This document shows, one piece after another, positions 14,649 to 64,000 of a stretch of DNA of 64,000 nt (the stretch's first letter is position 1; each line of letters begins with the position of its first letter). The translations under genes and the position numbers were made by a program. Under the pieces are notes generated by a model, which saw only the letters and a list, made by a program, of their open reading frames with translations, was not told where the DNA came from and ran no database searches. The stretch is from Bacteroidota bacterium (GTDB lineage Bacteria; Bacteroidota; Bacteroidia; Cytophagales; UBA9547), in assembly GCA_033763735.1 (NCBI GenBank), contig JANRJY010000026.1:101343-165342 (forward strand), given 5' to 3'.

Positions 14649-14649
14649 C

Positions 14650-43835: not shown

Positions 43836-43875
43836 AACGACAAAAACATTAAATTAAAAACAAAAACATTATAAA

Positions 43876-44309: not shown

Positions 44310-44435
44310 AATATTTAGAATTGTAATGATACTATTTTTCGCATCATTAATAATCTATTGGGTTTATAGTATGGATACTGTAAAATCAAATAGTAAACAA
44401 TAGTGCCTTACAAAGTCTTTTCAGTTTATTCTTTC

Positions 44436-45383
44436 ATGAAATCATTCACTATTGCTTTTATTTCATTCATTATTCTTTCTTGTGGTCACGATGCCTCCAA
44501 AAGTGGTCAGGATACTGCAACTTATGGCACTGCCAAAATAGCTTCTGATGAATCATTCCAAAATTTGGTTGATGCGGAACTTATGGTGTTTCATGCGCAA
44601 TATACTAGCGCAGATCTTAAGGTAATTTATAAACCGGAAGAAGAAGCATTTTTGGATTTTTTCAAAGATAGTGTTCGGTTGATAGTAACCTCCAAAAGAC
44701 TAGCTCCTGCTGATTCTGAATCTTTAGTAAAATCTAAAATAATTCCAAAAACATTAAAAATCGCTACAGATGGCGTAGCCTTGGTTGTGAATAACAGTAA
44801 TCCGGATAGTATGCTCACTATGAAGCAATTAAAACAAATATTTGATGGAAGTATTACTCATTGGAAAGATTTAGGGAAGAGATCATTGAACGAAAAAATC
44901 CAAATTATTTTTGACAATAACAATTCCAGCAATTTGCGATTCGTTCGTAATGCATTTGAACTAAATACCATATCTTCAAACATCTATGTAGCAGGTTCGA
45001 ATAAAAAAGTAGTGGAATATGTATCTCAAAACAAAAACACAATTGGTGTCATAGGTTCAAACTGGATAAGCGATACAGACGACAGTACATCAAAGTCTTT
45101 TTTGAAATCTGTAAAAGTTGTAGCAATTTCATCCCTTGATATTCCAACAAGTGCCAACGATTATTACCAGCCATATCAGGCATACGTTGCCACAGGTGAT
45201 TATCCACTCAGTAGGAATGTATACATAATCAGTAGAGAAACCCGAACAGGACTTGGGACAGGATTTACTGCATTTTGTGCAAGTGAAATAGGACAAAGAA
45301 TTATATTAAAAATGGGTTTAGTGCCCGCCACAGCCCCTGTAAGAATTATAAAAACCAAAAACAAACCTTTAAGTGAACTTTAA
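44436..45383 (+). CDS. PstS-family (PBP-like) substrate-binding lipoprotein
   Basis: From the ATG at 44436: MKSFTIAFISFIILSCG lipobox. IFDGSITHWKDLG and GVIGSNW motifs of phosphate-binding-like PBP_like_2 domains. The track start (GTG at 44403) is less likely. Confidence 0.7.
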   Translation: MKSFTIAFISFIILSCGHDASKSGQDTATYGTAKIASDESFQNLVDAELMVFHAQYTSADLKVIYKPEEEAFLDFFKDSVRLIVTSKRLAPADSESLVKSKIIPKTLKIATDGVALVVNNSNPDSMLTMKQLKQIFDGSITHWKDLGKRSLNEKIQIIFDNNNSSNLRFVRNAFELNTISSNIYVAGSNKKVVEYVSQNKNTIGVIGSNWISDTDDSTSKSFLKSVKVVAISSLDIPTSANDYYQPYQAYVATGDYPLSRNVYIISRETRTGLGTGFTAFCASEIGQRIILKMGLVPATAPVRIIKTKNKPLSEL

Positions 45384-45393
45384 TACCAATCTA

Positions 45394-47040: not shown

Positions 47041-47175
47041 ATTTTTATTTACCCACACAACCTTATTTATTTTTAATAATTTCTATACAAAAATAGCACC
47101 TATCATTGTAATATATGATTGGCTTGCTTATTTTTAGCATCCTTTACTGAATTTTTAATTCAACGACCCAACTAA

Positions 47176-50100
47176 ATGAATCAAATATTACGCAACGCTA
47201 GAATTGTATTGTTTATCTGTATCAATACTTTATTTGCACAAATACCCACTACAAATTTAAGCCTTTGGCTAAGGGCAGATGCGGGATTAACAACCACTAC
47301 AGGAAGTGTAATTAATTCCAATTGGACAGATCAATCTCCTAACGGATTAATTATGACTAGAAATGGAAGTCCAACTTTAGTTACCATTTCAACTCTTAAT
47401 GGTCAAAGATTTGTTCGAAGTGCTGGAGCATATTTTACACTAAATAGTGGCGTTTTTAATTTTAATAAACTTACATTTTTTGCGGTTGCAAATATATCTG
47501 CAGGTGATATTTTTTATAGAGCAGGTGAATATGGATTTGGAATTGAATCAGGTAGTAGTGGTCGATTTTACATTAATTCAAGTGCGTCTAACAAAGTGAT
47601 ATACCCCAATTATTTCAATAATACATCAATATTTTTTGGTTCATACAATCTAAATTCAATCACTGGCTCAATTAATACAACTACGTTATCACCATTTGTA
47701 TATAATGGTGCTATGTCTTCAAGTGGGTTGCTGTATATAGGAAATGGATATGGAACTTTAACTGGAGATTTAGCAGAATTAATAATGTATAATGGGGAAC
47801 TTACTCCAAGTGAAAGAACTCAAGTGTACAATTATCTTTCAACCAAATATAATATTGGCATTCTTCCAAACGCCCCACAAATAAGTGCAATTGGAACTCA
47901 ATCGAGTTCTGAACCTACTTATGTGGGTACAAGAGTATCACTCGGAGGTTGCTTTGGCACCGGTGATATTATTACCGTTAGAGGAATTAATTTCAGTTCC
48001 GTAACCGGAGTTAGTTTGAATGGCAATTCTATATCGGGGATTACATTCTACAGTTCAAGTTTGATTGGTTTTACTTTACCTGATGCATCCACTTATCCCA
48101 CGGGAACAGATTTTACAGGGAATGTATCCATAACCAATCCATTTGGCACAGGTGTTTCTCCTTTACCTTTACAAGTAATTTATTGCCCTACCTCACCAGC
48201 AAGTGTTATTTCTGCTGCAAGGAGTGGTTCATTTGCTGTTTCAGGATCTGATTTAAGCCAAATTTCTTCTGTAACCATTGGGGGCTTTACTACTACCGGT
48301 TTTTATGACTCTTTTTCAAAAACATATCGAGTTACTATTCCTCCAACAATGCCACTTGGTAACCAAACGGTTACACTTATTCAGAATACGGTATTAGGTC
48401 CACAACCTTACGACTTGTTCAATCAAGTAAATATTGTCACTTCATTGCCATCTCCCATCATCACCAACATAGCCCCTCAAAAAGCCGCTGCAGGTAGCTT
48501 AATAACGATTAACGGATCCAACTTTGGCTCAAGTGTAGGCGATAATATTGTGAACTTTGGAGCGGTGAAAGGGTTAATAAATTCGGCTTCCTCAACACAA
48601 ATTACTGCAATAGCACCTGTTGGATTGACTCATGAAAACACCAACCTTTTAAATCAAAACTCAGGGTTGAGCACACAATACAACATTCCGTATTACAACA
48701 CTTTCACCGGAGGCGGAGGCATTACAACCAATACATTTGCTCCATATGTGTCATTTACTGAAGGATACTACTATGGGTATTTTAGTGCCATTGGAGACTT
48801 AAATAATGATGGAAGACCTGAAATAATTACCTCGCATTTTTCCAATAATGTGATTACTATTTTACAAAATGCAAGCACCGGCAATACCATTAATGGATCA
48901 TCTTTTCAAAGTTACTTTACACTGAATACCTCATCGAATTGTGGTCAAGTAATAATTAAAGATTTTGACAATGACAGTAGGTTGGATATTGGAGTATTTA
49001 ATTTTGGTGGGCAAATAAATATATTTAGAAATATCAGTAATGGCGGCAACCTTTCTGCTGCAAGTTTTGCTACACCTGTGGTTATAACTGTACCTGTTGG
49101 AGGATATGCATTTGATGCCGGGGATATGGATGCAGATGGTAAATTAGACTTAGTTGTGGCCGCATATGGCATCAACAATAATTTATATCTCTATAAAAAT
49201 CAATTTATTGCAGGTACCATTACCGGTAGTTCTTTTGCCAGTGCCGTTACGATTGGGTTTGGAACGGGAGCTTATCCATTTGAACTAAAAGTAGTAGATG
49301 TAGATAATGATGGCAAACCGGATATAACTACCATTAATAAGAACAATTCAGGAAATTCAACCATTTCTGTATTCCGAAACATTGCCACTACCGGAGTCAT
49401 CAATACCTCTTCATTGAATACACCGGTTACGTTTACCCTGCCTAATACAGCAAGTACGGCAGCTCCTGATCCGGTGCTGGGATTGGAATTTGCGGATTTT
49501 GACTCAGACGGTAAACTGGATATTGTAGCAAGTAACCCTACACAAAATTCCATTTCTATATTCAAAAACAAAACATCTGTGGGAACGATAAATAGTAGCT
49601 CTTTTAATGAAAGATACGACTATTCAACGGCTCTGAATCCTTACGGTGTAGCCGTAGGTGACTTAACGGGCGATGGCAAAATTGATATCGCTGTTGCAAG
49701 CTATAACGAAGCCAAAATAAGCTTACTTAGGAATATCTCAACACAGGGAACGCTTACAGGCAGCAGTTTTTCATCAAAAACCGACATCGCTTCTATTGGA
49801 ACAACCAACCTACAACCCCAAATTGTAGATATGGACGGAGATTCAAAACCGGAGGTGGTTGTTTCGAATTACAATAATTTTACTTCATTAGTTTTCAGAA
49901 ATTTGATTGATAATCCTGCATCCATTACAGGATTTAGCCCTAGTTCAGGATTGCCGCTGAGTCAGGTTACACTTACGGGTAACAACTTTAACAATGTCAC
50001 TCAAGTGCGCATGGGTACCATTACAGGAGGATCCATTTTGGCTGTGAGTAGCAATTATATTGTGGTTCGCATACCAGCAGGTGCTGCATCAAACAATATT

Positions 50101-53100
50101 TACTTGGTGAACAATTCAGGTTCGGAAGCAGGTACTTCCGGAATTTTTACTATTACAGGTGCTACCCCTTATGCCGTCATTACAAGTGTAAGCCCTATCA
50201 ACGCAAGTTTGGGCAGTAGTGTCGTTATTCAAGGAAGTGGATTTGACGCTATCCCAAGTTTGAATAATGTATGGTTTGGTGCAACTAAAATGCCTGTGAC
50301 CAGTGCTACCCTTAATCAAATGGTGGTTTCAGTAGTGGGTGGTGCATCAAGTTCCAAAATAACCTACCAAAATGCATACGGATTGAATGACCAATGGAAA
50401 TTGCCTTTTGGGTATTCGTTTAATGGAGGGAACATTGCAAGTGGGTCGTTTACAAACAATGCTACTCTAAATACTGGAAGTCTACCTTATAATGTAATTT
50501 CAAATGATTTGGATAGTGATGGAAAACCTGACTTGATTGCAACTAATTGGAATACGAGCTCTAATCATTTATCTGTTTATAGAAACAATAGTATAAATGG
50601 TACAATAACGGCTAGTTCATTTGCATTACCGTTCAACTTGAGTGGTTACACGGCTAGTAATCCGTTTCAAGCAGCTGTAGGCGATTTGGATGGTGATGGA
50701 AAACCTGAAATAGTATTACCATTTTACAATACTGGGTATTTCACTATTTTCAAGAATAACAGTTCCCCAACTACTCTAACAGCAGCTTCATTTTCTAAAA
50801 ATGACATTCAAGTTTTACCAACCGGATATGGTTCTTATGGGTCTGCGATTGCTGATATAGATAATGATGGGTTTAACGACATAGTGTTTAGTTCATATTT
50901 AAATAGTGGTATATTTATATATAGAAATCTAGGAAATGGACGCCTAGATGCCGGAGGTTTTCAATTTACAAATTTTTGGACTACAGGTGGCAACCCTTCC
51001 AATATTCAAATAAGTGATATTGATAGTGATGGCAAGCTGGATATTTTGGTAGGAAATACCAGTACAACTTACTTTTCTATTTTTAGAAATATTAGCACTG
51101 TTGGTGGAATTAGTGCCTCATCTTTAGCTACTAGAATTGATTTACAAACACCTAACAATCCATATGGGGTAACTTTTGCAGACCTCAATTCGGATGGCAA
51201 ACCTGAGATTATCAATACTAATTATTCCACTAATCAAATATCCATCTTTCAGAACAATTGCAGTACCTCAACAATAACAGCTTCGAATTTCAGCAGAATA
51301 GATTTGCCTTGTATTGCAAGTTCAGGTCCTTACGGTTTGCATTCAGGTGATTTGGATGGTGATGGTAAGCCGGAAATTGTTGTTACAAGTCAAAGTGTTA
51401 CTCAATACTCTGTTTTTAAAAACAATTTTACTGCGGGTAATATATCATCTTCTCAATTTTCAAGATATGATTTTAATAATTCCCAATTTTTGTCAGGAGT
51501 AGAGTTGGTAGATTTGGATTTAGACGGCAAACAAGAAATTGTGACCGCCAATACTAATGCCAATACAATTAATATCTTTAAGAATCAAATAGGAAATGGA
51601 CAAGTTCCCACGATTACCGGATTTAATCCTTCAAGTGGGTTGGCATTGTCAACTTTTGTTACGGTTACGGGAAATGGCTTTTCAAGCGCAAGTGGAGTTA
51701 CTTTGGCTAATGTTCCAGTGGCAAGTTTTAATGTAATTAATGCAAATACAATGGTATTCAGGGTACCAAATAGTACCATTTCAGGTAAAATTGGCATTGC
51801 GAATCAATTCGGAACGGTTGGGCTTTCAACAGCTGATTTTACAGTTACAGGTGCAGCCCCTATTCCGAATATTACCAACATAATTCCTTACAGTGGTAAT
51901 ACAGGTTCATCCGTAGTAATATCAGGAAGTGGGTTTGATTTAACCCCCAACAATAACATTGTTTTTTTTGGAGCCATGAGTGCTAATGTAGTTAGTGCGA
52001 GTGCTAACTCATTAACGGTAACTGTTCCTAATGGAGCGACTAATGAAAATGTGAGAGTCAGTAATATTTCATCGGGATTAATTGGTGAAAGCTACAAGCC
52101 ATTTGTTACAACATTCCCAAATTCGGGTACCATTACCGGTGCTACTTTTGCCCCTAGAGTAGATATTCCTTCGGAAGTAAATGTTATAGCTACTATATTA
52201 GCTGACCTTGATGGTGATGGAAAAAATGACTTAATCGCTTCAAATTATAATTACAACACCATTTGGGTTTATAGAAATACCGGAACAGGAGCCAACTTAG
52301 CTACTCAATTTGCCCCTAAACAAATATTTACAACCGGTTCATATGCATATAAAATGACCACCGGTGATATAGATGGAGATGGTAAAATAGACTTGGTAGT
52401 ATCAAACTATAATAACGCTTCTGTTTCAATATTTAAAAACACCTCATCGATTGGCGGAATTTCTCTTGCTCCTAAAGTTGATTTTATAACGGGTACCAAT
52501 CCTACAGGGGTTAAGTTGGCAGACCTTGACAAAGATGGAGCACTTGATTTGATTGTAGCTAATTACAATACTTCCGGTTTCTTTTCGGTATTTAAAAACA
52601 CTAATATTTTAGGAACCATTACTGGAAACACATTTGCCAGCAGGCAGGATTTCACATGCGATTACTATGCGTACGATATTACCGTTGGGGACATTGACAA
52701 GGACGGACTTCAAGATATTGCCATTGGCACTCAAAACACCAATATCATTGGCGTTTTTAAGAATATTAGCTCTTCTGGTTCTATTTCATTCAATCCAAAA
52801 GTTTCAGTTATTTCTCAGTTTTATCCATGGGATGTAAAATTATCAGATATTGATGGAGATGATTTCCTTGATTTGGTTGTTTCAAATTCAAGCTACAGTA
52901 CTATTTCTGTATTAAGAAATACAGGAACAATAGGTACAATAACAGCTTCCAATTTTGCTGCCCGACAAGATTATAATAGTACTTCAAGTAATTATTCTCT
53001 TGCCTTGTGTGATATTGATGGCGATGGTAAAATTGATATAACCAATGCAAGTAACGGCATTCAAACTGTATCTGTGTTGAGAAATGTATCAACTTCAGGA

Positions 53101-56100
53101 GGAATAAATGTCAACTCATTATCACCTAAAATTGATTTTCAAACAAACATTGGAAATTCATATTACCACACATTTGGAGATATTACCGGAGATGGACTAC
53201 CGGAAATGATTGTGCCACAATACAGTTCAGGGACTATTTCTATTTTCAAAAACATGACTGCTCCTAATCCTACAATCACCGGGTTTAGTCCACAAACGGG
53301 TACAATAAACGTAGATATAATTACTGTTTCCGGCTTTGGGCTTAATGGTGTAACAAAAATTCAAGTAGGTTCCGGTTTAACCTCAAATGTAACATCATTA
53401 GGATCAAATACTTTAATTTTCAAAGTGCCATTATTGGCAACTACCGGGTTGATAACAGCAACTAATTCATTTAACGCTTCAAGCATTTCTATAGCCACAT
53501 TTACAGTTTTAGGGCTCTCTCCATTGCCAATTGTAACTTCGGTTTCGCCAATTAATACCTCTAATTCTGATATAATTACCTTATCAGGAAGTGGATTCGG
53601 TACTGTATTGGGTCAAAATGTGGTATATATTGGTGCTGAAAGAGTTGTAGTTCAATCAGTAAATCAAAATCAGATTACCGTTCAAAACCAAATCGGTACC
53701 AATAATGGCGCAATTTCAGTAATTAATACAATCAGTGGTTTGCAAGGCATTGCCAATCAGTTTGTAAACAACACATTTTCGGGACCCAATACCATTGTAG
53801 GAGCCAGTTTTGCCCCTTATGTGTCAACCACTACCAATTGGAATTCTTATATAAGTGAAATAGCTGACCTGGATGGAGATGGGAAAAACGATTTGATTTC
53901 GGCTGGATATGGAAATAATAGCATTTCTGTTTTCAGAAATGTAAGTTCCGTAGGTGGCTTTTCATTTGCTACCAGGCAAGATTTTACAGTCGGTACTAAT
54001 CCATTTGGATTGGCTGTTGCTGATTTTGATAATGATGGACGTAAAGATATAGCAGTTGGCAACTATTCAAGTGGCAATATTTCATTATTTAAGAATATTT
54101 CAACAATAGGCAATATTGCTTTTGCAACACGAGTAGATATAATAACTACCAGTTTTAGTCCTTATGGTTTTATTAGTTCAGGAGACTTAGATGGTGATGG
54201 TTTTTTGGATTTAGCCATTTCAGGTTATTACAACAGTTCGATAGTTTTACTTAAAAACCAAGGAATCGTAGGAACGATTACCGGTGCGAGTTTTGGAAAT
54301 AGATTTGACATTACTGGCTACTCAAATATGTATGACGCTCAGATTGTGGATGTGGATGGCGACAATAAAAACGACTTGGTATTTGTGGCTACAGGAAGCA
54401 ATATATTAGCCATAAGAAAAAACATAGGCATTCAAGGCGATTTCAGTCTTTCAATGTTTGCACCTGCAATTACTTTTGGTACATCTACGGCTCCTACAAA
54501 GATGACAATCAGAGATTTGGATAGAGATGGAAAGCTCGATGTTATAGTTACAAATCAATCAACCAGTTTCTTATCTGTTTTCAAAAATAATACCGTCGGA
54601 AATACAATCACAGGAAGTTCATTTAGTTCTTTCACTATAGGTTCACAAGGTAATCCATTTGGAGTAACAAGTGCAGACATTGATGGAGATGGCAGGTTGG
54701 ATATTTTATATGGCAGTTACAATAATGCTAAACTATCGGTAAATCGAAACATAAGTACTATTGGTGGGTTATCAGCAGCATCATTCGCACCACGTGTTGA
54801 TTATACCTCTCAAGGAGGTATATATGGCGTAACAGAAGGCGACATAGATGGAGATGGAAAAACTGATATATTAGCTTCAATCTATAATACTAACACCCTA
54901 AACATTTTTAGAAATTTATCTGGACCAACGCCATCCATTACAGGATTTTCACCTCTTACCGGTACTGCCGGAATTACAATTGTTTCCATTTCCGGTTTTG
55001 GTTTTAACAATATTACCAGTGTTGGAATTGCCGGATTCATTTCTCCAAATTATACAATTTTAGGCAATAATGTGATATTAGCAAAAGTACCCATTTCTGC
55101 ATCATCAGGATTAATCACTGTAACTAATGTATTTTTTGCATCAGGAGTTAGTAATCAGTCATTTACAGTAACTGGTGCTTATCCTTATCCTAGTATTAGC
55201 GGAATTGTTCCAAATGTGGCTGCTGTTGGTGAAACTATCCAAATCAACGGTTCAAATTTTGGAGCTTTAACCTCATTAAATGATGTATTTTTTGGGAATA
55301 TAAAAGCCAATGTATCATTTGCTTCACCAAGCAGTTTGCAAGTTACAGTCCCTGTTTCAAGTGAATATAAAAACATACGTATCACCAATAAATTCAACCA
55401 ACTAGCATCTGAATATAATTACCCTTTCAATCCCACATTTGCCGGTATGAATACCATAACGGGAGCAACTTATGCTCCAAAAGTAGATCAAGCCATGGGA
55501 ATTGGCGCAGCATACAGATTGGCCGTAGGTGATATTGATGGAGATGGTAAACTTGATGTAATTACTGGAACCTACAATTCAAGTTATATTAGTATTTTTA
55601 GAAATATTTCATCGCCAGGAACTTGGACAGGCACCTCCTTTGCCCCTAGAGTGGATATTAATATTGGATACACTTATTTCCATGAAATTGAATTGGCGGA
55701 TGTTGATTTGGATGGAAAACTGGATATTGTTGTAGCACAATACAATAACAGTAACATATTTATTATAAAAAATAATTCAAGTCCTGGTAACCTATCAAAC
55801 GCCTCATTTTCAACTCCTGTCCAAATTGCAGGACCAACAAACACATATGCAGTTGAGGTAGCCGATTTTAATAATGATGGTTTTCTTGACTTAGCTGCCG
55901 CAGGTATAAGTGCTTCAGTCGTATCCGTATACCTTCACAATGGAGTTACAGGTACTATTACAGGCCAGACATATGCTTCAAAAATTGATTTCAATAATTA
56001 TTCCAATGTATATGATTTGGAAGCAGCTGATTTTAATGGTGATGGATTAATTGATTTAGCATCCGCAAATTATACCAATAACAATGTAAGTATCCTTCAA

Positions 56101-59100
56101 AACAGTTCTGTAAACAATAATATTTCATTTAGATCATCCGTGCCGTATTTTGTAAATCAACCGCTTTCAATTAAGGCCGTGGATATTGATAGAGATGGAA
56201 AATTGGATTTTGTTACAAATAGCTATAATACTTCTAATGTCTATATTTTTAAAAATAACCTTGCTACTAATACCATTACTTCAACATCTTTTGGAAATGC
56301 AGGTAACGGAATCACATTTGCAACAGGTGGAGCTAACTATGGTGTTGATGTATTTGACATGGATGGCGATGGCAAATTAGATGTTCTCAGCGGTAATTAT
56401 GCTGCAAATACGGTGTCTATTTTAAGAAATATAGGCAATGTTGGCACAATAACTTCAAGTACGCTTGCTACAAAAGTTGATTTAACCACAGCAGCATATC
56501 CATGCTATGTATTGGCAGCTGATTTGGATGGAGATACCAAACCCGACATCATAGTTCCAAATGCCAGTGCTAGTAATTTTTCAATAATCAGGAATAATTT
56601 ATCATTTAATCCTACAGCAACCGGAATGAATCCGAATCAAGGTTCCGTTTTTTCAATTGTTTCAATTAGTGGTTTTAATTTAAATTCAATCAATCAAGTT
56701 TCGATTGGAGGAGGCATTACTAATCAAATAACCATATTAGGTTCAAATGCGCTTCTTGCAATGATACCAATTAATGCTCAAAGTGGTAGTGTAATTGTAA
56801 CCAATTCCCAAGGAAGTACTTCAACTGTACCGGGTATATTTACAGTAAATCCGGTTATTTACCCAAGTGTAACTGGGATTTCACCTATTAATGCAGGGGT
56901 AGGCAATTCAATTATTATAAATGGTTTAAATTTTAGCACAATCGCAGGTAATAACATAGTTTATTTTGGTCCAGTGAGGGCTACTGTTACAGGAAGCACA
57001 ACTAACTTACTGAATATTAATGTGCCTTCAGGCGCAAATTATTCACAATTGGATTTATTAGTCACAGATAAAAATATGCGAGCCCAATCGAATGATAGAT
57101 TTAGCCCAACATTTGGTGGTAGTGGTACCATAGTAGGTTCTTCATTTGCAACACCCGTAACTAATAATGCTGGTTCAAGTCCATTTACAACCCATTTGGC
57201 TGATTTGGATAATGATGGCAAACCGGAAATAATAGTGACAAATTATAGTAGTGCAACTATAGGCATTTATAAAAATAATACAACCGGCAATACCATCACA
57301 GGAACCTCATTTTCAAACGTTTTGAATTTAAGTGGCTCATATTCCTCACCTGCTGATATTAAAGCAGTAGATGTAGATCATGATGGTCGCTTGGATTTGA
57401 TTATTTCGGATAATTCGCTTCAATCCATCTTTGTTTGCAAAAATACCTCATCTGGAGGTTCAATATCTTTTGCAGCCCCTCAATCATATGCAGTGCCAAG
57501 TGTTGGTTATGTTTATAGTCAAGGAATAGATGTAGCTGATATTGATTATGATGGATTTATGGATATAGTTGTTGCTTGTGGAAGTGCGAATAAAGTCTCA
57601 GTTTTTAAACATAATGCCGTACCAGGCATAATCAATGCAGCTACTTATAGTAATCGTACCGATTATAATACTTCAACAAATCCCATTTATGTAAAAACAG
57701 GTGATTTTGATAAAGATGGAAAAACAGACATTATAGTATCAAATTATGGAGCCAATAATGTTCAAATTTTCAGAAATACAGCAATCCAAGGTATTATTAA
57801 TGCCAGTTCATTAGCTGTGCCAATAACGATAACAGTGAGTACAAATCCTGCACAAATTACCGTTGGAGATATTGATGGTGATGGCTGGCTAGATTTTGTA
57901 GTTGGTCATTATACCACTAATCAGATAAATGTTTATAGAAATAACAATATTGCAAACACGATTACCGGAGGTTCATTTACACCAACCGTACTTACAACAA
58001 ATGCTCGACCTGCCGGTGTATTGCTTACCGATCTCGATGGTGATTCAAAAGTTGAAATCATCAATGGAGGCAGCGATAATGTTACTATTAGTGTTTTCAG
58101 GAATTTATCAAGTCCCGGCACTATAACTGCAAGTTCATTTGCCACTCGACTACCAATCAATGCAGGAATTACTGGGGCAACTTATTTTGCTTCTGGGGAC
58201 TTGGATGCTGATGGCAAACCGGAACTTATATTTCCAGGATATTTTAGTGCTCAATTAAGTATTCTTAAAAACCTTCAAACCAACTCCAACCTACCTACTA
58301 TTACTTCATTTACTCCAAATGCCGAACGCAAAGGCAGAACAATGACAATTGGAGGAAACAATTTTGTGGGTGTTACATCTGTGTCACTGAATGGCACAAC
58401 AATCCCTTATTTTGTCCAAAATACCAATACCATCTTAACAACCCTTACCGGCAATGCATCGAGTGGCTTGGTTTCAATTGTTGGTTTTGGAGGCAGTGGT
58501 CTTTCTGCTTTTGTTTTCACTGTTTTGGGAACTCCTGCTCCTTCTGTGGTGGGAATTAATCCTAATCCGGTATTGCAAGGGGGAGTTATTACAATCACTG
58601 GTGCGGAAGTAGAATTTTTGTTAAATCCGATTACCATTTCAAGTAATGTAATAAGCAATTATTTGTATAATTCTGCTGCAGGAACAATTATTGCTACTGT
58701 ACCAGGAAACGCCATTTCAGGTGACGTGAGACTTGCAACTTCTTTTGGAGGAATTTCTGTTATAAACACTAACTCATATTTAAATGTAACTCCTTTCTTG
58801 TTGCCTACAATTACCGGTTTCAATCCAACATCTGCATTGCCTGGAAGTTTGGTTTCTGCTTTAGGAAATAATTTGGTAAGCATTACCGGTTTTTCAATCA
58901 GTGGTGTTTCTATCTCTTTCAATGTTGTTAATTCAAGTTTGATAACATTCACGGTTCCTAGCGCATTAACAGGAAGGGCAAATGTTATCAATTACAGTGG
59001 TCAAACACAATCCTCTTCATTATTACAAATACTTACCGCACCTAATCCAAACTTTGGGAATATGTTATTGATGGATGGTAATAATAATCAAATAAATATT

Positions 59101-62100
59101 CCGGATAATAATGCAATAGATTTCACAAATAGCTTTACAGCTGAAGCTTATGTTAAATTCAACCAGATAACGAGAGCAACGGCTGGTTTTGATTGGCAAG
59201 CAATATTTACAAAAAACAACTATTCTGTTGGATATGGATTAATGTTGCAAACAGGAACTGCGCAAAAGAACTTAAGATTTTATCTAAACGGATGTACGCC
59301 ATCATTCGTAACGTATGACTGGACATCCAGTTTAAATCCTAATGTTTGGTATCATGTAACGGTGACATATGATGGATCAAGCGCCAAAATTTACATAAAT
59401 GGCAATTTGGTTTTAAACACTCCTGTATCCGGAAATGTGGCAACTAACAATAATGCCTTGACTTTAGGAGCAAGCCCAACAAATGGTCCTTATCCTTTGG
59501 ATGGTAGTTTGGATGAAGTTCGTTTCTGGAATATTCCTGTTTCAATTTCCGGAATTTCGAATAATAGATGTTCGGAAATCATTGGAAACGAACCCGGATT
59601 AGTGGCTTATTACCGCTTCAATGAGGCAACCAATTCTTTAACAGCATTGGATGCTGGTCCACTGGCTATTAATGGAACGCTTGCCAACTTTACTTTGCCT
59701 ACTCAAAGAATCAATTCTACTGCACTGTGCTATCCGATAAGTACAGTCACATCCATCAATCCAAATCCCGCAATTGGTGGACAAACAATTGTGACGCTTA
59801 ATGGATTAGCTTTCAATGCGATTACATCGGTTAAAGTTGGAAATGTTAACATGCCTAATTATACAGTTGCAGGAAATAATATTTATGTTTCAGTTCCGGT
59901 TACAATTACTTCCGGTAATATTATTCTGGATAATGGAGGGACATTAAGCACATCTACAGGAATTCTTTCTGTTGTAGGCTTAAATCCAACTATTTCTTCT
60001 ATATCCCCTTCTTCTGAACGACAAGGAAGAATTGTTTCAATTATTGGTACTAATCTGAATAATGCTACTCAAGTTTCTTTTGCAAATAATGTAAATGCAA
60101 CTTACGCAATAATTAATTCAACATTAATTGTAACAACCGTTCCCGGTGGGGCAATATCCGGATTAATAACCGTAACAAATATTGCAGGTATAGGAACAGG
60201 CACTTTCAATGTGCTTTCAACACCATCACCTATAGTTACAACCATTTCGCCTTCATTTGCTGTGAATGGTACTTTAGTAAATGTAACCGTTCTTGAACAA
60301 GAATATTTACAATCTCCTATTACTATTGGTGGCACTACAATCTCATCTTATACGCTTACCGGAAACAATTTAAGTTTCACTGTACCAGTTTCTGCTATTT
60401 CAGGTCATGTACGGGTTCGAACGCTTTATGGAGGTATATCATCTACTACAACAGGCTCATTATTAACTATATTACCACCTCCTACTATAACTGATTTCGG
60501 GCATGTTAACACAGGTGTAAAGCTTGCTTCAGGAGGATGCGGTTCTGGAAATCCGGATATAATTACTATTACAGGAAATGGATTTGCTCCCGGTAGCACT
60601 AGTGTTACGGTTAACAACTTTAATGTTGTCAATTATACAGTATCATCATCCAATTTAATTTATGCTGCAGTTCCTGATTTAGTGAACTTCCCCGGTCAAG
60701 ATATCACAGGAAAAATTAGAATTACCACACCTGCCGGAAACATTGCATCCATTGCTAATCTTACTGGTAAATTTTGTGTAATTACACCAACAACAACAGT
60801 TGGAGCAAGTTATGGAACCCAAATTGCAATCACTGGAAATGACCTTGCGAATGTAACCGGGGCAACCATAGGAGGAATAAATGCTACATATACTTACAAT
60901 AGCAGTCAACAAAAATTATATGTTACTGTTCCAACTAATGCACCTTCTGGAAACGTTTCTTTTGGATTAAGTCAAGGAAGTTATGTATATAATTTCCCTT
61001 TCCCTCTTTATATTTATCCAAAACCAACTGTTTCAGGTATCATTCCTAATCCGGCACCTATTGGTTCGATTATTTCAATCACTGGTATTCACTTGTTTAG
61101 TACCACTTCGGTTTCGTTTAATAATGCCGTACAAACTGTGATCAGCAATATAAATGACAACTTAATAACCCTGCAGGTTCCTACCGGTGCTAGAAATGGT
61201 GCATTAACCATATTTGCTATTGGAGGAAATGCAATAAGCCCGGTTTCGTTAACTATTGCACCTACCGTGACTTCTATTAATCCTAATGCAGCCGGGGTTG
61301 GTCAGCAAGTTGACATATTTGGCGAATCATTATCTGATATTACACAAGTACAGATAAATGGAATAAATGCACCGATTAATTTCAAAAATGCTACAAATGT
61401 GAACATAAATGTTCCTTTTGGTGCAACAAGTGGCAATTTGGTAGTTTTTACAGCTGGTTACACTTCTCCAGGAATATTCTTTACTGTAATACCTCCGCCT
61501 GTTATCAATAACATTTTACCTGCCAGTGCAGGCATCGGAGCATTTGTTACTATCATTGGTGACAATTTCTCATTATCCGGTACGAATACGGTTAACTTTA
61601 ATGGTTCAGGTACGGCAACCGCTACTATTTTAGGTCCAAACACTTTGATTGTGCAAGTACCAGGTACCGCTAGTACCGGATTTATTACTGTAACCAACAA
61701 TGGTGGAAGTACCCAAAGCAATATTCAGTTTGTCGTATTGCCAAGCTTAAGTGGGTCATTCTCCCCTATTACTGCCGGTTTGGGAACACAAATAAGTTTA
61801 TTTGGAAACAATTTGTTTAATCCTTCTTTAATCAGATTCAATGGTGTTGCTGCAACAAACTTTACATCTGTATCTTCATCCAGAATAGATGTAGTTATTC
61901 CTCCGGCAGCAGGAACCGGACCAGTTTCTGTCGATGTAACAACAGATGGTGGAACCTCTAATGCGGTCACTTATACAATATTAGGCATTCCTACAATTTC
62001 GAGCCACACTCCTTTAAGTGGCATTGCAGGAACGGTGGTAACAGTAAATGGAACGAATTTCTTGGCATCTAACAATGTATTGGTGAATGGGGCCACAGCA

Positions 62101-64000
62101 AATGTCCAATTCATTTCATCCAATCAATTGTTGGTTACAGTTCCATCTAATGTAAATGTTGGTGTAGGAAACATTCAAGTTCAAAATGCAGGAAATGTCA
62201 ATTTACAATCACCTGCCAATTATTCTAATAGTCCAAGCAGCTTCACTGCAATTCCGACAATTACACTTATTAAACAACCTTGCAATAACAATCAGATTTC
62301 AATAGGTATTTGGGGTCAATTGGTAAAAATAGAAGGTACTAATTTCTTGTCAGGCATGCAAATTTCCTTCAATGGGGTCACTTCATCATATAGTTCCGGA
62401 TATTTTATTTGTTTTGGCACTTACACTTCTTTTGGAAGTAATTCTCTATACACATTTATTCCTAATGGTGCCACATCCGGAAATGTTACAGTAATTACGC
62501 AAGGTGGCACTTCTAATACCATTCCTTTTACAATTATTCCACCTCCTACTGTAGGTTCATTTAGTCCAATTACAGGAATTGCAGGCACTTCTGTTACGAT
62601 CAATGGTACTGATTTCACTTCTGTAACTTCAGTTAATTTTAATGGTGCAAATGCATCGTTCACCCCTGTTAGTAGTACGCAACTAATTGCCTTAGTTCCA
62701 AACAACGCAGCCGCAGGCAAAATATCTGTATCAGCTTTTGGTGGCACCGGTCAAAGCTCAGTTAATTTTACACCTGTTCCGGTTATCACTTCAATTAACT
62801 ATTCCGAAGCACCTATTGGGTCTACAGTTAGAATATTTGGAACCAATTTATATGCTCCTACCGATATAGATTTTTCAAATAGTAATAATGCCAGTTCATC
62901 AAACAACAATATTACTTATTTGGATGTAGTGGTTCCTGCTAATGCGAATAATGGAGTGATATCGTTTACTAATGTGGGTGGAACCTCTGTATCACCATTT
63001 AACTTTATAGTAAGTACAATTACGGGCCTTAGCGCCAATACAGGAGTAGCAGGTACAATCGTTTCATTGACCGGTGTTGGAATCACTTCAGCAACTTCAT
63101 TCCAATTTGCTTCAACAAGTTCATTTTCAATAATATCTACTGCTACAGGAGTAGTAGTTGTATCGATACCCGGTACAGCTGAAAGTGGAGCAATAAGGTT
63201 GAATTTCCCTAATGGAGGTTTCACTACTATTGGTGGATTCAATCCAACACCTGTTATAACAGATGTAAGTCCATATACACATGGTACCAGTCAGTCAATT
63301 AATTTGATTGGAACCAATTTAAGACAAGTAATTGCAGCCAATTTTGGAGGTGTATTAACACAATCCAATTTAGGCGTTGCCAGTGGAAGTAATAGAAATG
63401 GAGTAAGAGTACCTAACAATGCACTATCCGGTATAATTAACATTACTGTTACAGGTGGGGGTACCGCTTCAAGTCCTTTATCATTTACTGTAATATCCAT
63501 TACCAGCATACTACCGACAACAGTACTTGGAGGAACCCAAATTTCAATTTTGGGTGCAAATCTTGACAATACTAGCTCAGTTGTAATTGGAGGAACAACT
63601 GTTGCCGGCATCAATGCAGCCAGCACTTCTAATTTGTTGATTACCACTGTTCCAAGTAATATTTCAAGTGGTGTTGTAGTTGTAAATAAAGGCGGTGGGT
63701 ATAACGATTCATATTCATTGAATTTGCCTAATGCCACCATTACTAGTGTCAATCCATTATATGGTCCTGTTGGAACAGTAATTACTATTATTGGAAATAA
63801 TTTTACGGCTTCAAGAAATGTTTATTTATACAATTCAAACCATAATCCGTTTAGCTATTCCATTCCTTATCAAGTTGTTACCAACCAACTTATTTTAGCA
63901 ACAATTACTTCAAATGTGATAAATGGGAATGTGTATGTAACAGGTCAAAACAACAATAATGCTGCTGGACCATTCTTTACCCTACCTCCAACATTAAATA
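47176..64000 (+). CDS. Giant secreted multi-domain protein (partial, 3' end beyond window): LamG / IPT-TIG / six FG-GAP-VCBS propellers / LamG / IPT-TIG array
   Basis: The ATG at 47176 directly follows an in-frame TAA (47173-47175). Frame 1 stayed open in every stretch I translated by hand. The track lists no frame-1 ORF after 47040, as expected if no stop occurs. The only plus-strand track ORFs in the region are four frame-2 ORFs of 67 aa or fewer. The N-terminus MNQILRNARIVLFICINTLFAQ is a signal peptide. Confidence 0.88.
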   Translation, partial: MNQILRNARIVLFICINTLFAQIPTTNLSLWLRADAGLTTTTGSVINSNWTDQSPNGLIMTRNGSPTLVTISTLNGQRFVRSAGAYFTLNSGVFNFNKLTFFAVANISAGDIFYRAGEYGFGIESGSSGRFYINSSASNKVIYPNYFNNTSIFFGSYNLNSITGSINTTTLSPFVYNGAMSSSGLLYIGNGYGTLTGDLAELIMYNGELTPSERTQVYNYLSTKYNIGILPNAPQISAIGTQSSSEPTYVGTRVSLGGCFGTGDIITVRGINFSSVTGVSLNGNSISGITFYSSSLIGFTLPDASTYPTGTDFTGNVSITNPFGTGVSPLPLQVIYCPTSPASVISAARSGSFAVSGSDLSQISSVTIGGFTTTGFYDSFSKTYRVTIPPTMPLGNQTVTLIQNTVLGPQPYDLFNQVNIVTSLPSPIITNIAPQKAAAGSLITINGSNFGSSVGDNIVNFGAVKGLINSASSTQITAIAPVGLTHENTNLLNQNSGLSTQYNIPYYNTFTGGGGITTNTFAPYVSFTEGYYYGYFSAIGDLNNDGRPEIITSHFSNNVITILQNASTGNTINGSSFQSYFTLNTSSNCGQVIIKDFDNDSRLDIGVFNFGGQINIFRNISNGGNLSAASFATPVVITVPVGGYAFDAGDMDADGKLDLVVAAYGINNNLYLYKNQFIAGTITGSSFASAVTIGFGTGAYPFELKVVDVDNDGKPDITTINKNNSGNSTISVFRNIATTGVINTSSLNTPVTFTLPNTASTAAPDPVLGLEFADFDSDGKLDIVASNPTQNSISIFKNKTSVGTINSSSFNERYDYSTALNPYGVAVGDLTGDGKIDIAVASYNEAKISLLRNISTQGTLTGSSFSSKTDIASIGTTNLQPQIVDMDGDSKPEVVVSNYNNFTSLVFRNLIDNPASITGFSPSSGLPLSQVTLTGNNFNNVTQVRMGTITGGSILAVSSNYIVVRIPAGAASNNIYLVNNSGSEAGTSGIFTITGATPYAVITSVSPINASLGSSVVIQGSGFDAIPSLNNVWFGATKMPVTSATLNQMVVSVVGGASSSKITYQNAYGLNDQWKLPFGYSFNGGNIASGSFTNNATLNTGSLPYNVISNDLDSDGKPDLIATNWNTSSNHLSVYRNNSINGTITASSFALPFNLSGYTASNPFQAAVGDLDGDGKPEIVLPFYNTGYFTIFKNNSSPTTLTAASFSKNDIQVLPTGYGSYGSAIADIDNDGFNDIVFSSYLNSGIFIYRNLGNGRLDAGGFQFTNFWTTGGNPSNIQISDIDSDGKLDILVGNTSTTYFSIFRNISTVGGISASSLATRIDLQTPNNPYGVTFADLNSDGKPEIINTNYSTNQISIFQNNCSTSTITASNFSRIDLPCIASSGPYGLHSGDLDGDGKPEIVVTSQSVTQYSVFKNNFTAGNISSSQFSRYDFNNSQFLSGVELVDLDLDGKQEIVTANTNANTINIFKNQIGNGQVPTITGFNPSSGLALSTFVTVTGNGFSSASGVTLANVPVASFNVINANTMVFRVPNSTISGKIGIANQFGTVGLSTADFTVTGAAPIPNITNIIPYSGNTGSSVVISGSGFDLTPNNNIVFFGAMSANVVSASANSLTVTVPNGATNENVRVSNISSGLIGESYKPFVTTFPNSGTITGATFAPRVDIPSEVNVIATILADLDGDGKNDLIASNYNYNTIWVYRNTGTGANLATQFAPKQIFTTGSYAYKMTTGDIDGDGKIDLVVSNYNNASVSIFKNTSSIGGISLAPKVDFITGTNPTGVKLADLDKDGALDLIVANYNTSGFFSVFKNTNILGTITGNTFASRQDFTCDYYAYDITVGDIDKDGLQDIAIGTQNTNIIGVFKNISSSGSISFNPKVSVISQFYPWDVKLSDIDGDDFLDLVVSNSSYSTISVLRNTGTIGTITASNFAARQDYNSTSSNYSLALCDIDGDGKIDITNASNGIQTVSVLRNVSTSGGINVNSLSPKIDFQTNIGNSYYHTFGDITGDGLPEMIVPQYSSGTISIFKNMTAPNPTITGFSPQTGTINVDIITVSGFGLNGVTKIQVGSGLTSNVTSLGSNTLIFKVPLLATTGLITATNSFNASSISIATFTVLGLSPLPIVTSVSPINTSNSDIITLSGSGFGTVLGQNVVYIGAERVVVQSVNQNQITVQNQIGTNNGAISVINTISGLQGIANQFVNNTFSGPNTIVGASFAPYVSTTTNWNSYISEIADLDGDGKNDLISAGYGNNSISVFRNVSSVGGFSFATRQDFTVGTNPFGLAVADFDNDGRKDIAVGNYSSGNISLFKNISTIGNIAFATRVDIITTSFSPYGFISSGDLDGDGFLDLAISGYYNSSIVLLKNQGIVGTITGASFGNRFDITGYSNMYDAQIVDVDGDNKNDLVFVATGSNILAIRKNIGIQGDFSLSMFAPAITFGTSTAPTKMTIRDLDRDGKLDVIVTNQSTSFLSVFKNNTVGNTITGSSFSSFTIGSQGNPFGVTSADIDGDGRLDILYGSYNNAKLSVNRNISTIGGLSAASFAPRVDYTSQGGIYGVTEGDIDGDGKTDILASIYNTNTLNIFRNLSGPTPSITGFSPLTGTAGITIVSISGFGFNNITSVGIAGFISPNYTILGNNVILAKVPISASSGLITVTNVFFASGVSNQSFTVTGAYPYPSISGIVPNVAAVGETIQINGSNFGALTSLNDVFFGNIKANVSFASPSSLQVTVPVSSEYKNIRITNKFNQLASEYNYPFNPTFAGMNTITGATYAPKVDQAMGIGAAYRLAVGDIDGDGKLDVITGTYNSSYISIFRNISSPGTWTGTSFAPRVDINIGYTYFHEIELADVDLDGKLDIVVAQYNNSNIFIIKNNSSPGNLSNASFSTPVQIAGPTNTYAVEVADFNNDGFLDLAAAGISASVVSVYLHNGVTGTITGQTYASKIDFNNYSNVYDLEAADFNGDGLIDLASANYTNNNVSILQNSSVNNNISFRSSVPYFVNQPLSIKAVDIDRDGKLDFVTNSYNTSNVYIFKNNLATNTITSTSFGNAGNGITFATGGANYGVDVFDMDGDGKLDVLSGNYAANTVSILRNIGNVGTITSSTLATKVDLTTAAYPCYVLAADLDGDTKPDIIVPNASASNFSIIRNNLSFNPTATGMNPNQGSVFSIVSISGFNLNSINQVSIGGGITNQITILGSNALLAMIPINAQSGSVIVTNSQGSTSTVPGIFTVNPVIYPSVTGISPINAGVGNSIIINGLNFSTIAGNNIVYFGPVRATVTGSTTNLLNINVPSGANYSQLDLLVTDKNMRAQSNDRFSPTFGGSGTIVGSSFATPVTNNAGSSPFTTHLADLDNDGKPEIIVTNYSSATIGIYKNNTTGNTITGTSFSNVLNLSGSYSSPADIKAVDVDHDGRLDLIISDNSLQSIFVCKNTSSGGSISFAAPQSYAVPSVGYVYSQGIDVADIDYDGFMDIVVACGSANKVSVFKHNAVPGIINAATYSNRTDYNTSTNPIYVKTGDFDKDGKTDIIVSNYGANNVQIFRNTAIQGIINASSLAVPITITVSTNPAQITVGDIDGDGWLDFVVGHYTTNQINVYRNNNIANTITGGSFTPTVLTTNARPAGVLLTDLDGDSKVEIINGGSDNVTISVFRNLSSPGTITASSFATRLPINAGITGATYFASGDLDADGKPELIFPGYFSAQLSILKNLQTNSNLPTITSFTPNAERKGRTMTIGGNNFVGVTSVSLNGTTIPYFVQNTNTILTTLTGNASSGLVSIVGFGGSGLSAFVFTVLGTPAPSVVGINPNPVLQGGVITITGAEVEFLLNPITISSNVISNYLYNSAAGTIIATVPGNAISGDVRLATSFGGISVINTNSYLNVTPFLLPTITGFNPTSALPGSLVSALGNNLVSITGFSISGVSISFNVVNSSLITFTVPSALTGRANVINYSGQTQSSSLLQILTAPNPNFGNMLLMDGNNNQINIPDNNAIDFTNSFTAEAYVKFNQITRATAGFDWQAIFTKNNYSVGYGLMLQTGTAQKNLRFYLNGCTPSFVTYDWTSSLNPNVWYHVTVTYDGSSAKIYINGNLVLNTPVSGNVATNNNALTLGASPTNGPYPLDGSLDEVRFWNIPVSISGISNNRCSEIIGNEPGLVAYYRFNEATNSLTALDAGPLAINGTLANFTLPTQRINSTALCYPISTVTSINPNPAIGGQTIVTLNGLAFNAITSVKVGNVNMPNYTVAGNNIYVSVPVTITSGNIILDNGGTLSTSTGILSVVGLNPTISSISPSSERQGRIVSIIGTNLNNATQVSFANNVNATYAIINSTLIVTTVPGGAISGLITVTNIAGIGTGTFNVLSTPSPIVTTISPSFAVNGTLVNVTVLEQEYLQSPITIGGTTISSYTLTGNNLSFTVPVSAISGHVRVRTLYGGISSTTTGSLLTILPPPTITDFGHVNTGVKLASGGCGSGNPDIITITGNGFAPGSTSVTVNNFNVVNYTVSSSNLIYAAVPDLVNFPGQDITGKIRITTPAGNIASIANLTGKFCVITPTTTVGASYGTQIAITGNDLANVTGATIGGINATYTYNSSQQKLYVTVPTNAPSGNVSFGLSQGSYVYNFPFPLYIYPKPTVSGIIPNPAPIGSIISITGIHLFSTTSVSFNNAVQTVISNINDNLITLQVPTGARNGALTIFAIGGNAISPVSLTIAPTVTSINPNAAGVGQQVDIFGESLSDITQVQINGINAPINFKNATNVNINVPFGATSGNLVVFTAGYTSPGIFFTVIPPPVINNILPASAGIGAFVTIIGDNFSLSGTNTVNFNGSGTATATILGPNTLIVQVPGTASTGFITVTNNGGSTQSNIQFVVLPSLSGSFSPITAGLGTQISLFGNNLFNPSLIRFNGVAATNFTSVSSSRIDVVIPPAAGTGPVSVDVTTDGGTSNAVTYTILGIPTISSHTPLSGIAGTVVTVNGTNFLASNNVLVNGATANVQFISSNQLLVTVPSNVNVGVGNIQVQNAGNVNLQSPANYSNSPSSFTAIPTITLIKQPCNNNQISIGIWGQLVKIEGTNFLSGMQISFNGVTSSYSSGYFICFGTYTSFGSNSLYTFIPNGATSGNVTVITQGGTSNTIPFTIIPPPTVGSFSPITGIAGTSVTINGTDFTSVTSVNFNGANASFTPVSSTQLIALVPNNAAAGKISVSAFGGTGQSSVNFTPVPVITSINYSEAPIGSTVRIFGTNLYAPTDIDFSNSNNASSSNNNITYLDVVVPANANNGVISFTNVGGTSVSPFNFIVSTITGLSANTGVAGTIVSLTGVGITSATSFQFASTSSFSIISTATGVVVVSIPGTAESGAIRLNFPNGGFTTIGGFNPTPVITDVSPYTHGTSQSINLIGTNLRQVIAANFGGVLTQSNLGVASGSNRNGVRVPNNALSGIINITVTGGGTASSPLSFTVISITSILPTTVLGGTQISILGANLDNTSSVVIGGTTVAGINAASTSNLLITTVPSNISSGVVVVNKGGGYNDSYSLNLPNATITSVNPLYGPVGTVITIIGNNFTASRNVYLYNSNHNPFSYSIPYQVVTNQLILATITSNVINGNVYVTGQNNNNAAGPFFTLPPTLN
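47245..47870 (+). other. N-terminal LamG/concanavalin-like jellyroll domain of the giant protein
   Basis: LSLWLRADAGL...NWTDQSPNG...NGQRFVRS...GDLAELIMYNGELTPSERTQVYNYLSTKY, the pattern seen at the start of many giant LamG-led surface proteins. Confidence 0.6.
47872..48705 (+). other. Three IPT/TIG-like domains
   Basis: Units start at about 47872, 48181 and 48460. An example is IITNIAPQKAAAGSLITINGSNFGSSVGDNIVNFGAVKG...SSTQITAIAP. Confidence 0.7.
48706..49905 (+). repeat. FG-GAP/VCBS propeller 1 (7 blades)
   Basis: Blade Ca-loop motifs GDLNNDGRPE, KDFDNDSRLD, GDMDADGKLD, VDVDNDGKPD, ADFDSDGKLD, GDLTGDGKID and VDMDGDSKPE. Each is followed by ...[IVL][FLY][RKQ]N. Confidence 0.8.
50430..51585 (+). 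repeat. FG-GAP/VCBS propeller 2 (7 blades)
   Basis: NDLDSDGKPD, GDLDGDGKPE, ADIDNDGFND, SDIDSDGKLD, ADLNSDGKPE, GDLDGDGKPE, VDLDLDGKQE. Confidence 0.8.
52125..53253 (+). repeat. FG-GAP/VCBS propeller 3 (7 blades)
   Basis: ADLDGDGKND, GDIDGDGKID, ADLDKDGALD, GDIDKDGLQD, SDIDGDDFLD, CDIDGDGKID, GDITGDGLPE. All seven were re-translated codon by codon. Confidence 0.85.
53790..54915 (+). repeat. FG-GAP/VCBS propeller 4 (7 blades)
   Basis: ADLDGDGKND, ADFDNDGRKD, GDLDGDGFLD, VDVDGDNKND, RDLDRDGKLD, ADIDGDGRLD, GDIDGDGKTD. Confidence 0.8.
55452..56595 (+). repeat. FG-GAP/VCBS propeller 5 (7 blades)
   Basis: GDIDGDGKLD, ADVDLDGKLD, ADFNNDGFLD, ADFNGDGLID, VDIDRDGKLD, FDMDGDGKLD, ADLDGDTKPD (re-translated). 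Confidence 0.85.
57125..58272 (+). repeat. FG-GAP/VCBS propeller 6 (7 blades)
   Basis: ADLDNDGKPE, VDVDHDGRLD, ADIDYDGFMD, GDFDKDGKTD, GDIDGDGWLD, TDLDGDSKVE, GDLDADGKPE (re-translated). Confidence 0.85.
58290..59030 (+). other. Three IPT/TIG domains after the last propeller
   Basis: ITSFTPNAERKGRTMTIGGNNFVGVTSVSLNG..., PSVVGINPNPVLQGGVITITG... and PTITGFNPTSALPGSLVSALGNNL... Confidence 0.75.
59035..59745 (+). other. Internal LamG (Laminin_G_3-like) jellyroll domain
   Basis: LLMDGNNNQINIPDNNAIDFTNSFTAEAYVKF...WQAIFTK...WYHVTVTYDGSSAKIYINGNLV...LTLGA...LDGSLDEVRFWN...GLVAYYRFNE. Confidence 0.8.
59746..64000 (+). repeat. Array of at least 17 IPT/TIG modules (about 81 aa / 245 nt each), continuing past the window edge
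   Basis: Module starts are at about 59750, 59980, 60228, 60480, 60780, 61020, 61260, 61497, 61740, 61985, 62250, 62535, 62775, 63010, 63245, 63490 and 63735. Each has the form [IV].[ST][IFV].P..[GA]..G..[IV].I.G.N[FL] ... and ends with a G-rich strand. Confidence 0.8.

Follow-up and report, generated by a model that had tools for sequence, protein, structure and literature searches.

Introduction

Giant surface proteins that are exported by a type IX secretion system (T9SS) have been described in a small number of Bacteroidota. GhpA of Aureispira is a T9SS substrate of 5,898 amino acids (aa), in which an N-terminal binding module is followed by an immunoglobulin (Ig)-like stem and a C-terminal sorting domain (CTD), and it forms a surface fibre of 240 nm (bioRxiv 10.1101/2024.01.29.577165). 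The other giant of this kind is the 6,497-aa SprB of Flavobacterium johnsoniae. Substrates whose CTD is of type A are exported by the T9SS, handled by the PorV shuttle, and subsequently either anchored statically or released (PMC12618676). The present study concerns a gene of comparable size that starts at position 47176 of a 64,000-nucleotide (nt) stretch of a Bacteroidota bacterium (contig JANRJY010000026.1, positions 101,343 to 165,342; the whole stretch is referred to here as the window, and nucleotide coordinates are counted from its first letter). The product, GenBank entry MDX2189123.1, combines lectin-like domains, IPT/TIG Ig-like domains and six FG-GAP/VCBS propellers, whose supercluster (VCBS/FG-GAP) also comprises the integrins (PMC8023676), and is proposed to be a T9SS-exported adhesin.

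Results

One gene that extends beyond the window

Translation of frame 1 from 47176 to 63999 gave 5,608 residues with zero stops, and the frame runs off the window at 64000, which bears out the proposal in an initial annotation of this DNA that the frame stays open from the ATG at 47176 to the window edge. The remaining five frames contain between 203 and 569 stops over the same interval. Since a TAA lies in frame directly 5' of the ATG, 47176 is the first possible start. The probability that 5,608 codons remain open by chance is about 10^-182 at the composition of the window (34% G+C, stop probability 0.072 per codon), and the G+C content at third codon positions (GC3 = 0.24) matches that of a housekeeping gene within the window. 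The initial annotation had also remarked that the mechanical list of open reading frames (ORFs) omits this frame. The plus strand is indeed empty in that list after 47040; the omission arises because the list excludes ORFs that leave their source, and it is no property of the sequence. The start codon is preceded by an AT-rich intergenic leader of 135 nt on the plus strand (47041..47175), and no match to the Bacteroidota promoter -7 box (TAnnTTTG) was found across 46900-47180.

The complete gene was identified by an exhaustive representative search with residues 3707-4906, which returned a protein of 7,398 aa (P0117) that aligned at exactly those coordinates and whose residues 1-5608 are 100% identical to the window translation. 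P0117 is MDX2189123.1, annotated as 'FG-GAP-like repeat-containing protein' in a Bacteroidota metagenome-assembled genome, and the proteins that neighbour the giant gene in the window are exact matches to GenBank MDX2189112-MDX2189117, which come from a contig of 176,298 bp. By this identity, the window carries codons 1-5608 (47176..64000, plus strand), or the 5' 76%, of one 22.2-kb gene with 7,398 codons. A product of more than 5,600 aa had been anticipated, which the GenBank entry, identical over its first 5,608 aa, confirms. The initial annotation further called this the largest and least conventional feature of the region. The protein is real and very large, but it has already been deposited and automatically annotated and is less unconventional than was supposed. 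The whole protein has a mass of 767 kDa, is acidic (isoelectric point ~4.7), and contains 28 cysteines in 7,398 aa. The sole match of the last 600 aa of the window among genome contigs was a Microscillaceae relative at 30% identity, and an exact 60-mer from the window end was absent among metagenome contigs. An ORF of 153 aa lies antisense within the gene (63291-63752, minus strand); it is most likely spurious, because the most open antisense frame still holds 203 stops, which is typical of a codon-biased gene.

A repetitive gene of this length could be the product of misassembly, and its repeats were therefore inspected. The direct DNA repeats in the gene are 60-80% identical and at most 83 nt long, the longest exact repeat in 47176-64000 is 20 nt, and the six protein super-repeats share 33-40% pairwise identity. 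Repeat-driven misassembly, which the initial annotation had wished to see excluded, is judged very unlikely because repeats this diverged would not collapse or be mis-joined, and because an independently assembled homolog (P0118, see below) is uninterrupted and aligns collinearly along its 7,376 aa.

Modules and export signals of the protein

The N-terminus (aa 1-21, 47176..47238, plus strand, as are all modules below) has the features of a Sec signal peptide: in MNQILRNARIVLFICINTLFA, directly followed by QIP, a basic n-region (MNQILRNAR) precedes a hydrophobic core, with a small residue at -1 of the predicted cleavage site between LFA and QIP. The predicted mature start, QIPTTNL, is kept in the homologs P0118 and P0045, in agreement with the signal peptide that was proposed initially.

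At the other end of the protein, outside the window, aa 7321-7396 of MDX2189123.1 match PF18962 (50.9 bits, cut-off 27) and TIGR04183 (50.6 bits, cut-off 23), i.e., a type A T9SS CTD. This domain is tied to the gene in the window through the 100% identity over 5,608 aa with P0117, and the prediction that a T9SS sorting domain would be located beyond the window edge is thereby borne out. The type B CTD model (TIGR04131) did not match the C-terminus; the type A model alone did. On these grounds, MDX2189123.1 is very probably a T9SS-exported extracellular protein.

The extracellular-type modules that had been noticed in the sequence were recovered above Pfam cut-offs, with 494 and 218 bits for FG-GAP_3, 133 and 244 bits for TIG, and 92-98 bits for Laminin_G_3. 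Individual TIG copies were located with an iterative hidden Markov model (HMM) that was built from the protein's own TIG repeats, and propellers with a propeller HMM; the former detects 33 TIG copies within the window sequence and 40 over the entire protein.

The first module, aa 22-240 (47239..47895), had been labelled LamG. It is a lectin-like jelly roll by predicted fold, but it matches no Pfam family even at E<=1, and BLASTP found no significant match between it and the internal LamG domain. It shares 32% identity with the repeated N-terminal modules of the T9SS cargo protein P0045. An AlphaFold2 (AF2) model (predicted local distance difference test, pLDDT, 73.8; predicted template modelling score, pTM, 0.76) gave as top Foldseek matches in the Protein Data Bank (PDB) the HCN domain of botulinum and tetanus neurotoxins (BoNT/TeNT), a trans-sialidase lectin domain, the PilC lectin module and a phage tailspike, with TMq values of 0.5-0.64. 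According to the model, this module is a ConA/LamG-like lectin domain by fold and not a demonstrated member of Laminin_G_3.

Three IPT/TIG Ig-like domains follow (aa 260-493, 47953..48654; self-built HMM and PF01833), and then six propellers of approximately 400 aa each span aa 494-3706, with two TIG domains between consecutive propellers and a super-repeat period of approximately 555 aa. Propeller 1 (aa 494-915, 48655..49920) is a seven-bladed FG-GAP/VCBS propeller that is covered by seven FG-GAP_3 stretches (E 1.7e-43) and by the propeller HMM. The five super-repeats that come after it, each consisting of two TIG domains and one propeller, are super-repeat 2 (aa 916-1477, 49921..51606), 3 (aa 1478-2031, 51607..53268), 4 (aa 2032-2585, 53269..54930), 5 (aa 2586-3145, 54931..56610), and 6 (aa 3146-3706, 56611..58293). 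All are supported by the HMMs and Ca2+ motifs, and super-repeat 3 also by an AF2 model and by fold and PDB sequence matches. Within Pfam, the propellers score against PF13517 (494 and 218 bits, as given above for FG-GAP_3) and PF01839 (337 bits). A motif match to a DxDxDG-type Ca2+ loop is present in 41 of the 42 blades (7, 7, 7, 7, 6, and 7 per propeller).

The AF2 model of super-repeat 3 (pLDDT 92.2, pTM 0.90) comprises two Ig-like domains and seven blades of four strands. Its top-ranked Foldseek matches overall are TIG-plus-propeller surface proteins of Bacteroides, its best propeller matches are ITFG2/KICSTOR, CRTAC1, integrin alphaV and the PVL lectin, and CRTAC1 and integrin alphaV were also returned by the PDB sequence search.

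Downstream of the propellers, three more TIG domains (aa 3707-3939, 58294..58992; self-built HMM) are followed by a Laminin_G_3/ConA-like lectin domain (aa 3967-4123, 59074..59544; PF13385 at E 8e-28 and 97.9 bits, cut-off 27.6). The remainder of the window encodes the first 17 of 24 TIG domains in an uninterrupted array, the presumed stalk (aa 4190-5608, 59743..64000), which continues to aa 6162; apart from the TIG HMM, it is recognised by the NCBIfam family NF058597 'choice-of-anchor Z repeating domain' (137.8 bits, cut-off 30, seven stretches). Between this array and the CTD, outside the window, approximately aa 6163-7320 of MDX2189123.1 gave no match in Pfam, NCBIfam and PDB sequence searches. 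This region is weakly repetitive, with an R[IV]RGNF motif that recurs in it, and is 42% identical in P0118; that it forms a beta-helix is only a guess. NCBIfam matches of the protein to FusH esterase, TafC, and LIC10067 were rejected, as they were far under their cut-offs and reflect common repeat folds.

Relatives and turnover of repeat units

Homolog searches with short queries return proteins of approximately 0.55-1.75 times the query length, and giants are hence invisible to them. One full-length relative, P0118 (7,376 aa), stems from an independent assembly (Logan SRR15359035) and aligns with P0117 in a single high-scoring segment pair over residues 1-7398 and 1-7375, respectively, at 43.4% identity. 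It has 38 TIG domains, six propellers with 40 Ca2+ motif matches, LamG and Por_Secre_tail, in the same order as in P0117. A third lineage, L001 (SRR14117737), has an identical module order, and two frameshifts break it into three ORF calls with lengths of 1,454, 940, and 4,910 aa (L001:8064-22428); the last of these ORFs bears Por_Secre_tail. One of the frameshifts is located at an A-run, where TTTAAAATAAT is found against an expected FKNN reading. The frameshifts may stem from an error in sequencing or assembly, or else mark a copy that was inactivated recently.

Homologs of only 1,000-1,900 aa (P0002-P0031) occur frequently in Chitinophaga, Pedobacter, Mucilaginibacter, and numerous metagenomes. 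Like the giant, they follow a TIG-propeller-TIG grammar and end in a PF18962 tail, at 28-35% identity; unlike the giant, they have one to three propellers, and most of them are devoid of the N-terminal lectin, the internal LamG domain, the array of 24 TIG domains, and the C-terminal region of 1,150 aa. The true homologs are these uncharacterised two-/three-propeller 'IPT/TIG' and 'FG-GAP-like' T9SS proteins; their cargo family is widespread, and the giant is a member of it in expanded form. Five other candidates (P0119, P0127, P0126, P0120, and P0121) were rejected as family members, since they are multi-LamG or TIG-only giants of another architecture.

Comparison of individual propellers between P0117 and P0118 revealed 68% identity for propeller 2 of P0117 with propeller 2 of P0118 and again 68% for propeller 4 of P0117 with propeller 3 of P0118, with every other pair at 38-46%. 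Propeller orthology is only partly collinear, which indicates gain and loss of units at a constant total of six. The gene neighbourhoods of the three loci (the window, P0118, and L001) are wholly different, and there is therefore no conserved operon. No PorP/PorE-type or PorP/SprF-like genes follow the P0118 gene, where the next gene encodes a metallophosphoesterase.

The Bacteroidota O-glycosylation sequon, D-(S/T)-(A/I/L/V/M/T), is found once in the 7,398 aa of MDX2189123.1, against approximately 26-27 expected, and a mirror-motif control in the same protein gave 10 occurrences. In the non-propeller part the counts are 1 observed and 8.2 expected, in the collinear P0118 4 and 27, and in the shorter relatives 175 and 256. 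Across the window's 36 other proteins the sequon is enriched (53 against 28 expected). The depletion is partly structural, because Asp is locked in the Ca2+ loops, which is not a full explanation.

Neighbouring genes and intergenic sequence

Upstream of the giant gene, 40368-47040 encodes ExbB, two ExbD proteins, a TonB-like protein, a PstS-like PBP_like_2 protein, and a 555-aa TPR protein. This cluster is probably unrelated to the giant protein, since it is not conserved beside the homologs; an ExbD neighbour gene was matched on a 1.1-kb Logan contig, and the read set DRR729084 contains the ExbD gene of this organism. The TonB-like gene is directly followed by a likely intrinsic terminator (43345-43374), formed by a perfect 10-bp hairpin (AAACAGCCCA / TGGGCTGTTT) with a T-run behind it. 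The next approximately 450 nt (43390-43850) are intergenic, have a G+C content above that of their surroundings, and contain dense short hairpins as well as two copies of the 21-nt motif GCTTCGTNCCTCRSMATGACA (0.01 expected by chance); they look like repetitive extragenic palindromic (REP) or miniature inverted-repeat transposable element (MITE)-type elements. No Rfam families were found anywhere in the window.

At the opposite end, 43 kb from the giant gene, 64-3623 encodes a DUF5723 protein (197 bits) and then a 712-aa protein with PD40 repeats and an OmpA domain, which together are possibly an outer-membrane anchoring pair. Against models of the T9SS protein PorE and of CHU_0125, the 712-aa protein scores approximately 155-160 bits, far under the cut-offs of 600-620. 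Lastly, ORFs of 280-540 aa at 11777-15933, 26044-26889, and 36403-37446 have no Pfam match at E<=1e-5, and NCBIfam matches at E<=0.001 are absent or weak.

Discussion

The modules and export signals of MDX2189123.1 suggest a giant, stalked, multivalent and Ca2+-dependent surface adhesin that is exported by Sec and the T9SS and has a reach of approximately 200 nm, a reading to which a probability of roughly 0.65 is assigned. From established T9SS biology, the protein would be exported by Sec, after which the CTD would be recognised, the chain would cross the outer membrane through the SprA/Sov translocon, and it would be handed over to the PorV shuttle for covalent C-terminal attachment at the cell surface or for release. 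If it is anchored by its C-terminus, the anatomy of the protein would place the region without family and the 24-TIG array nearest to the cell, with the array serving as the stalk, and would put the six propellers, with the lectin at the tip, up to approximately 200 nm away, where these distal modules may bind glycans, particles, or other cells in a multivalent, Ca2+-dependent manner. The length is based on approximately 4 nm per Ig-like domain, as derived from GhpA, in which 52 Ig-like repeats form the 240-nm fibre.

Several observations weigh against this proposal. The fibre length presumes an extended chain; the signal peptide was called by eye; and the approximately 1,150 aa for which Pfam, NCBIfam, and PDB sequence searches gave no match are long enough that the function could hide there. 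In addition, the T9SS machinery (SprA/Sov, PorV, PorK-N/GldK-N, and PorU) was not found within the 64-kb window, and type A CTDs do not discriminate anchoring from release (PMC12618676).

The last of these points leads to the alternative that survives best, although it is considered unlikely, namely a released matrix or biofilm scaffold, in which the CTD is cleaved off, the protein is shed, and its Ca2+ propellers and lectins cross-link exopolysaccharide and cells. FG-GAP propeller proteins of this kind are known from Vibrio, where RbmC and Bap1 cross-link biofilms. The release permitted by a type A CTD (PMC12618676) would suit such a scaffold, as would the presence of several lectin-type and propeller modules in an acidic protein with predicted Ca2+ binding, and no dedicated anchoring partner gene adjoins the homolog P0118. 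However, 24 uninterrupted TIG domains near the CTD fit a spacer that keeps binding modules at a distance from the cell, which a soluble cross-linker would not obviously require.

A somewhat more doubtful extension of the surface adhesin is that the family of approximately 7,400 aa (P0117, P0118, and L001) constitutes a distinct T9SS fibre for the long-range multivalent capture of cells, flagella, or polysaccharide particles. Such a fibre could be laid out as a C-terminal base (the repetitive region of approximately 1,150 aa, together with the CTD), a stalk of 24 TIG domains, a row of six Ca2+ propellers, and a lectin at the tip. As part of the same idea, the periplasmic O-glycosylation sequon was almost purged, possibly so that the 767-kDa chain can pass the T9SS or so that binding faces stay free.

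Considerably less probable is a gliding-motility adhesin of the SprB/RemA type that is moved over the cell surface by the gliding machinery. The giant size, the Ig-like repeats, and T9SS dependence do resemble SprB, and RemA is a lectin adhesin with a type A CTD that takes part in gliding, but the CTD of MDX2189123.1 is of type A rather than of type B (TIGR04131), which targets the gliding track, and when SprB carried type A CTDs as a fusion in F. johnsoniae, it did not move or was released (PMC12618676). Furthermore, Pfam scans of the protein returned no SprB-repeat family, and no PorP/SprF-like gene stands beside the P0118 gene.

Slightly less probable again is a prey- or partner-capture fibre of the 'grappling hook' type, i.e., an oligomeric, rigid T9SS fibre that catches cells or flagella. 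The logic of GhpA is recognisable in the signal peptide, the distal N-terminal binding part, the Ig-like stem, and the C-terminal T9SS domain, and the predicted length of approximately 200 nm is close to the 240 nm of GhpA. Nevertheless, the binding modules differ (propellers and lectins, compared with an AgI/II-like hook), no PorP/PorE genes come after the P0118 gene, and 28 cysteines in 7,398 aa stand against the many disulfides by which GhpA is stabilised.

That the frame is an artefact, be it an assembly in which repeats were collapsed or joined into a chimera, or a pseudogene in decay that is still open by chance, is hardly tenable: the sequence is repetitive, comes from a metagenome-assembled genome, and has a relative with two frameshifts (L001), but its longest exact internal repeat of 20 nt, the divergence of the repeat copies (60-80% in DNA, 33-40% in protein units), the zero stops over 5,608 codons, and the intact P0118, independently assembled and collinear over 7,376 aa, all argue against it.

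For the preferred reading, a stalked surface adhesin, the nearest characterised analogues are GhpA, SprB, and RemA, with which MDX2189123.1 shares the predicted secretion route, the size class, and the logic of a binding head on an Ig-like stalk, and to which its function would be analogous, although its modules are probably not homologous to theirs; GhpA and RemA were compared by their descriptions. Like MDX2189123.1, GhpA is a giant protein from Bacteroidota with a Sec signal peptide, a distal N-terminal binding region, and a C-terminal T9SS domain. Its stem has 52 Ig-like repeats compared with 40 TIG domains in MDX2189123.1, and its hook resembles an AgI/II adhesin, whereas MDX2189123.1 has lectins and six FG-GAP propellers, and its CTD is of type A. 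GhpA is also a disulfide-rich, glycosylated heptamer with PorP/PorE homologs encoded downstream, whereas MDX2189123.1 has few cysteines and an almost complete absence of the O-glycosylation sequon. SprB is likewise a giant, repetitive, T9SS-secreted surface filament of Bacteroidota, but its CTD is of type B (TIGR04131), SprF serves as its cognate shuttle, and its repeats are of a type of their own, compared with a type A CTD and TIG, FG-GAP, and LamG modules in MDX2189123.1. RemA of F. johnsoniae shares the type A CTD and the combination of a lectin domain with Ig-like repeats, and is found on the surface and partly released; it is far smaller and has no FG-GAP propellers.

At the level of single modules, sequence and fold matches relate the propellers to integrin alpha, CRTAC1, ITFG2, and the PVL lectin, which have the same seven-bladed propeller with DxDxDG Ca2+ loops. 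These proteins contain one propeller each, whereas MDX2189123.1 has six in tandem in one bacterial chain. A comparable design is found in the giant repeats-in-toxin (RTX) adhesins of the type I secretion system (T1SS), e.g., those of the LapA and MpIBP type, in which a long Ig-like extender presents Ca2+-dependent binding modules far from the cell. These are secreted by the T1SS, retained by their N-terminus, and carry the binding modules at the C-terminal end; compared with them, the polarity of MDX2189123.1 is reversed, and its predicted export is by Sec and the T9SS.

With 7,398 aa, MDX2189123.1 exceeds the two characterised giant T9SS substrates, SprB (6,497 aa) and GhpA (5,898 aa), and it therefore extends the size range predicted for the Sec/T9SS route. 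The six integrin-like propellers per chain, in a protein that is 43% identical from end to end in a second lineage, make it a clean case of a modular, length-conserved adhesin, which may help studies of the means by which uncultured Bacteroidota adhere to particles, hosts, or prey. It is no new kind of system, since every one of its modules is already known, as are its secretion signal and its general plan; it belongs to the known class of giant T9SS-secreted repeat adhesins, in which its high and conserved number of propellers is unusual.

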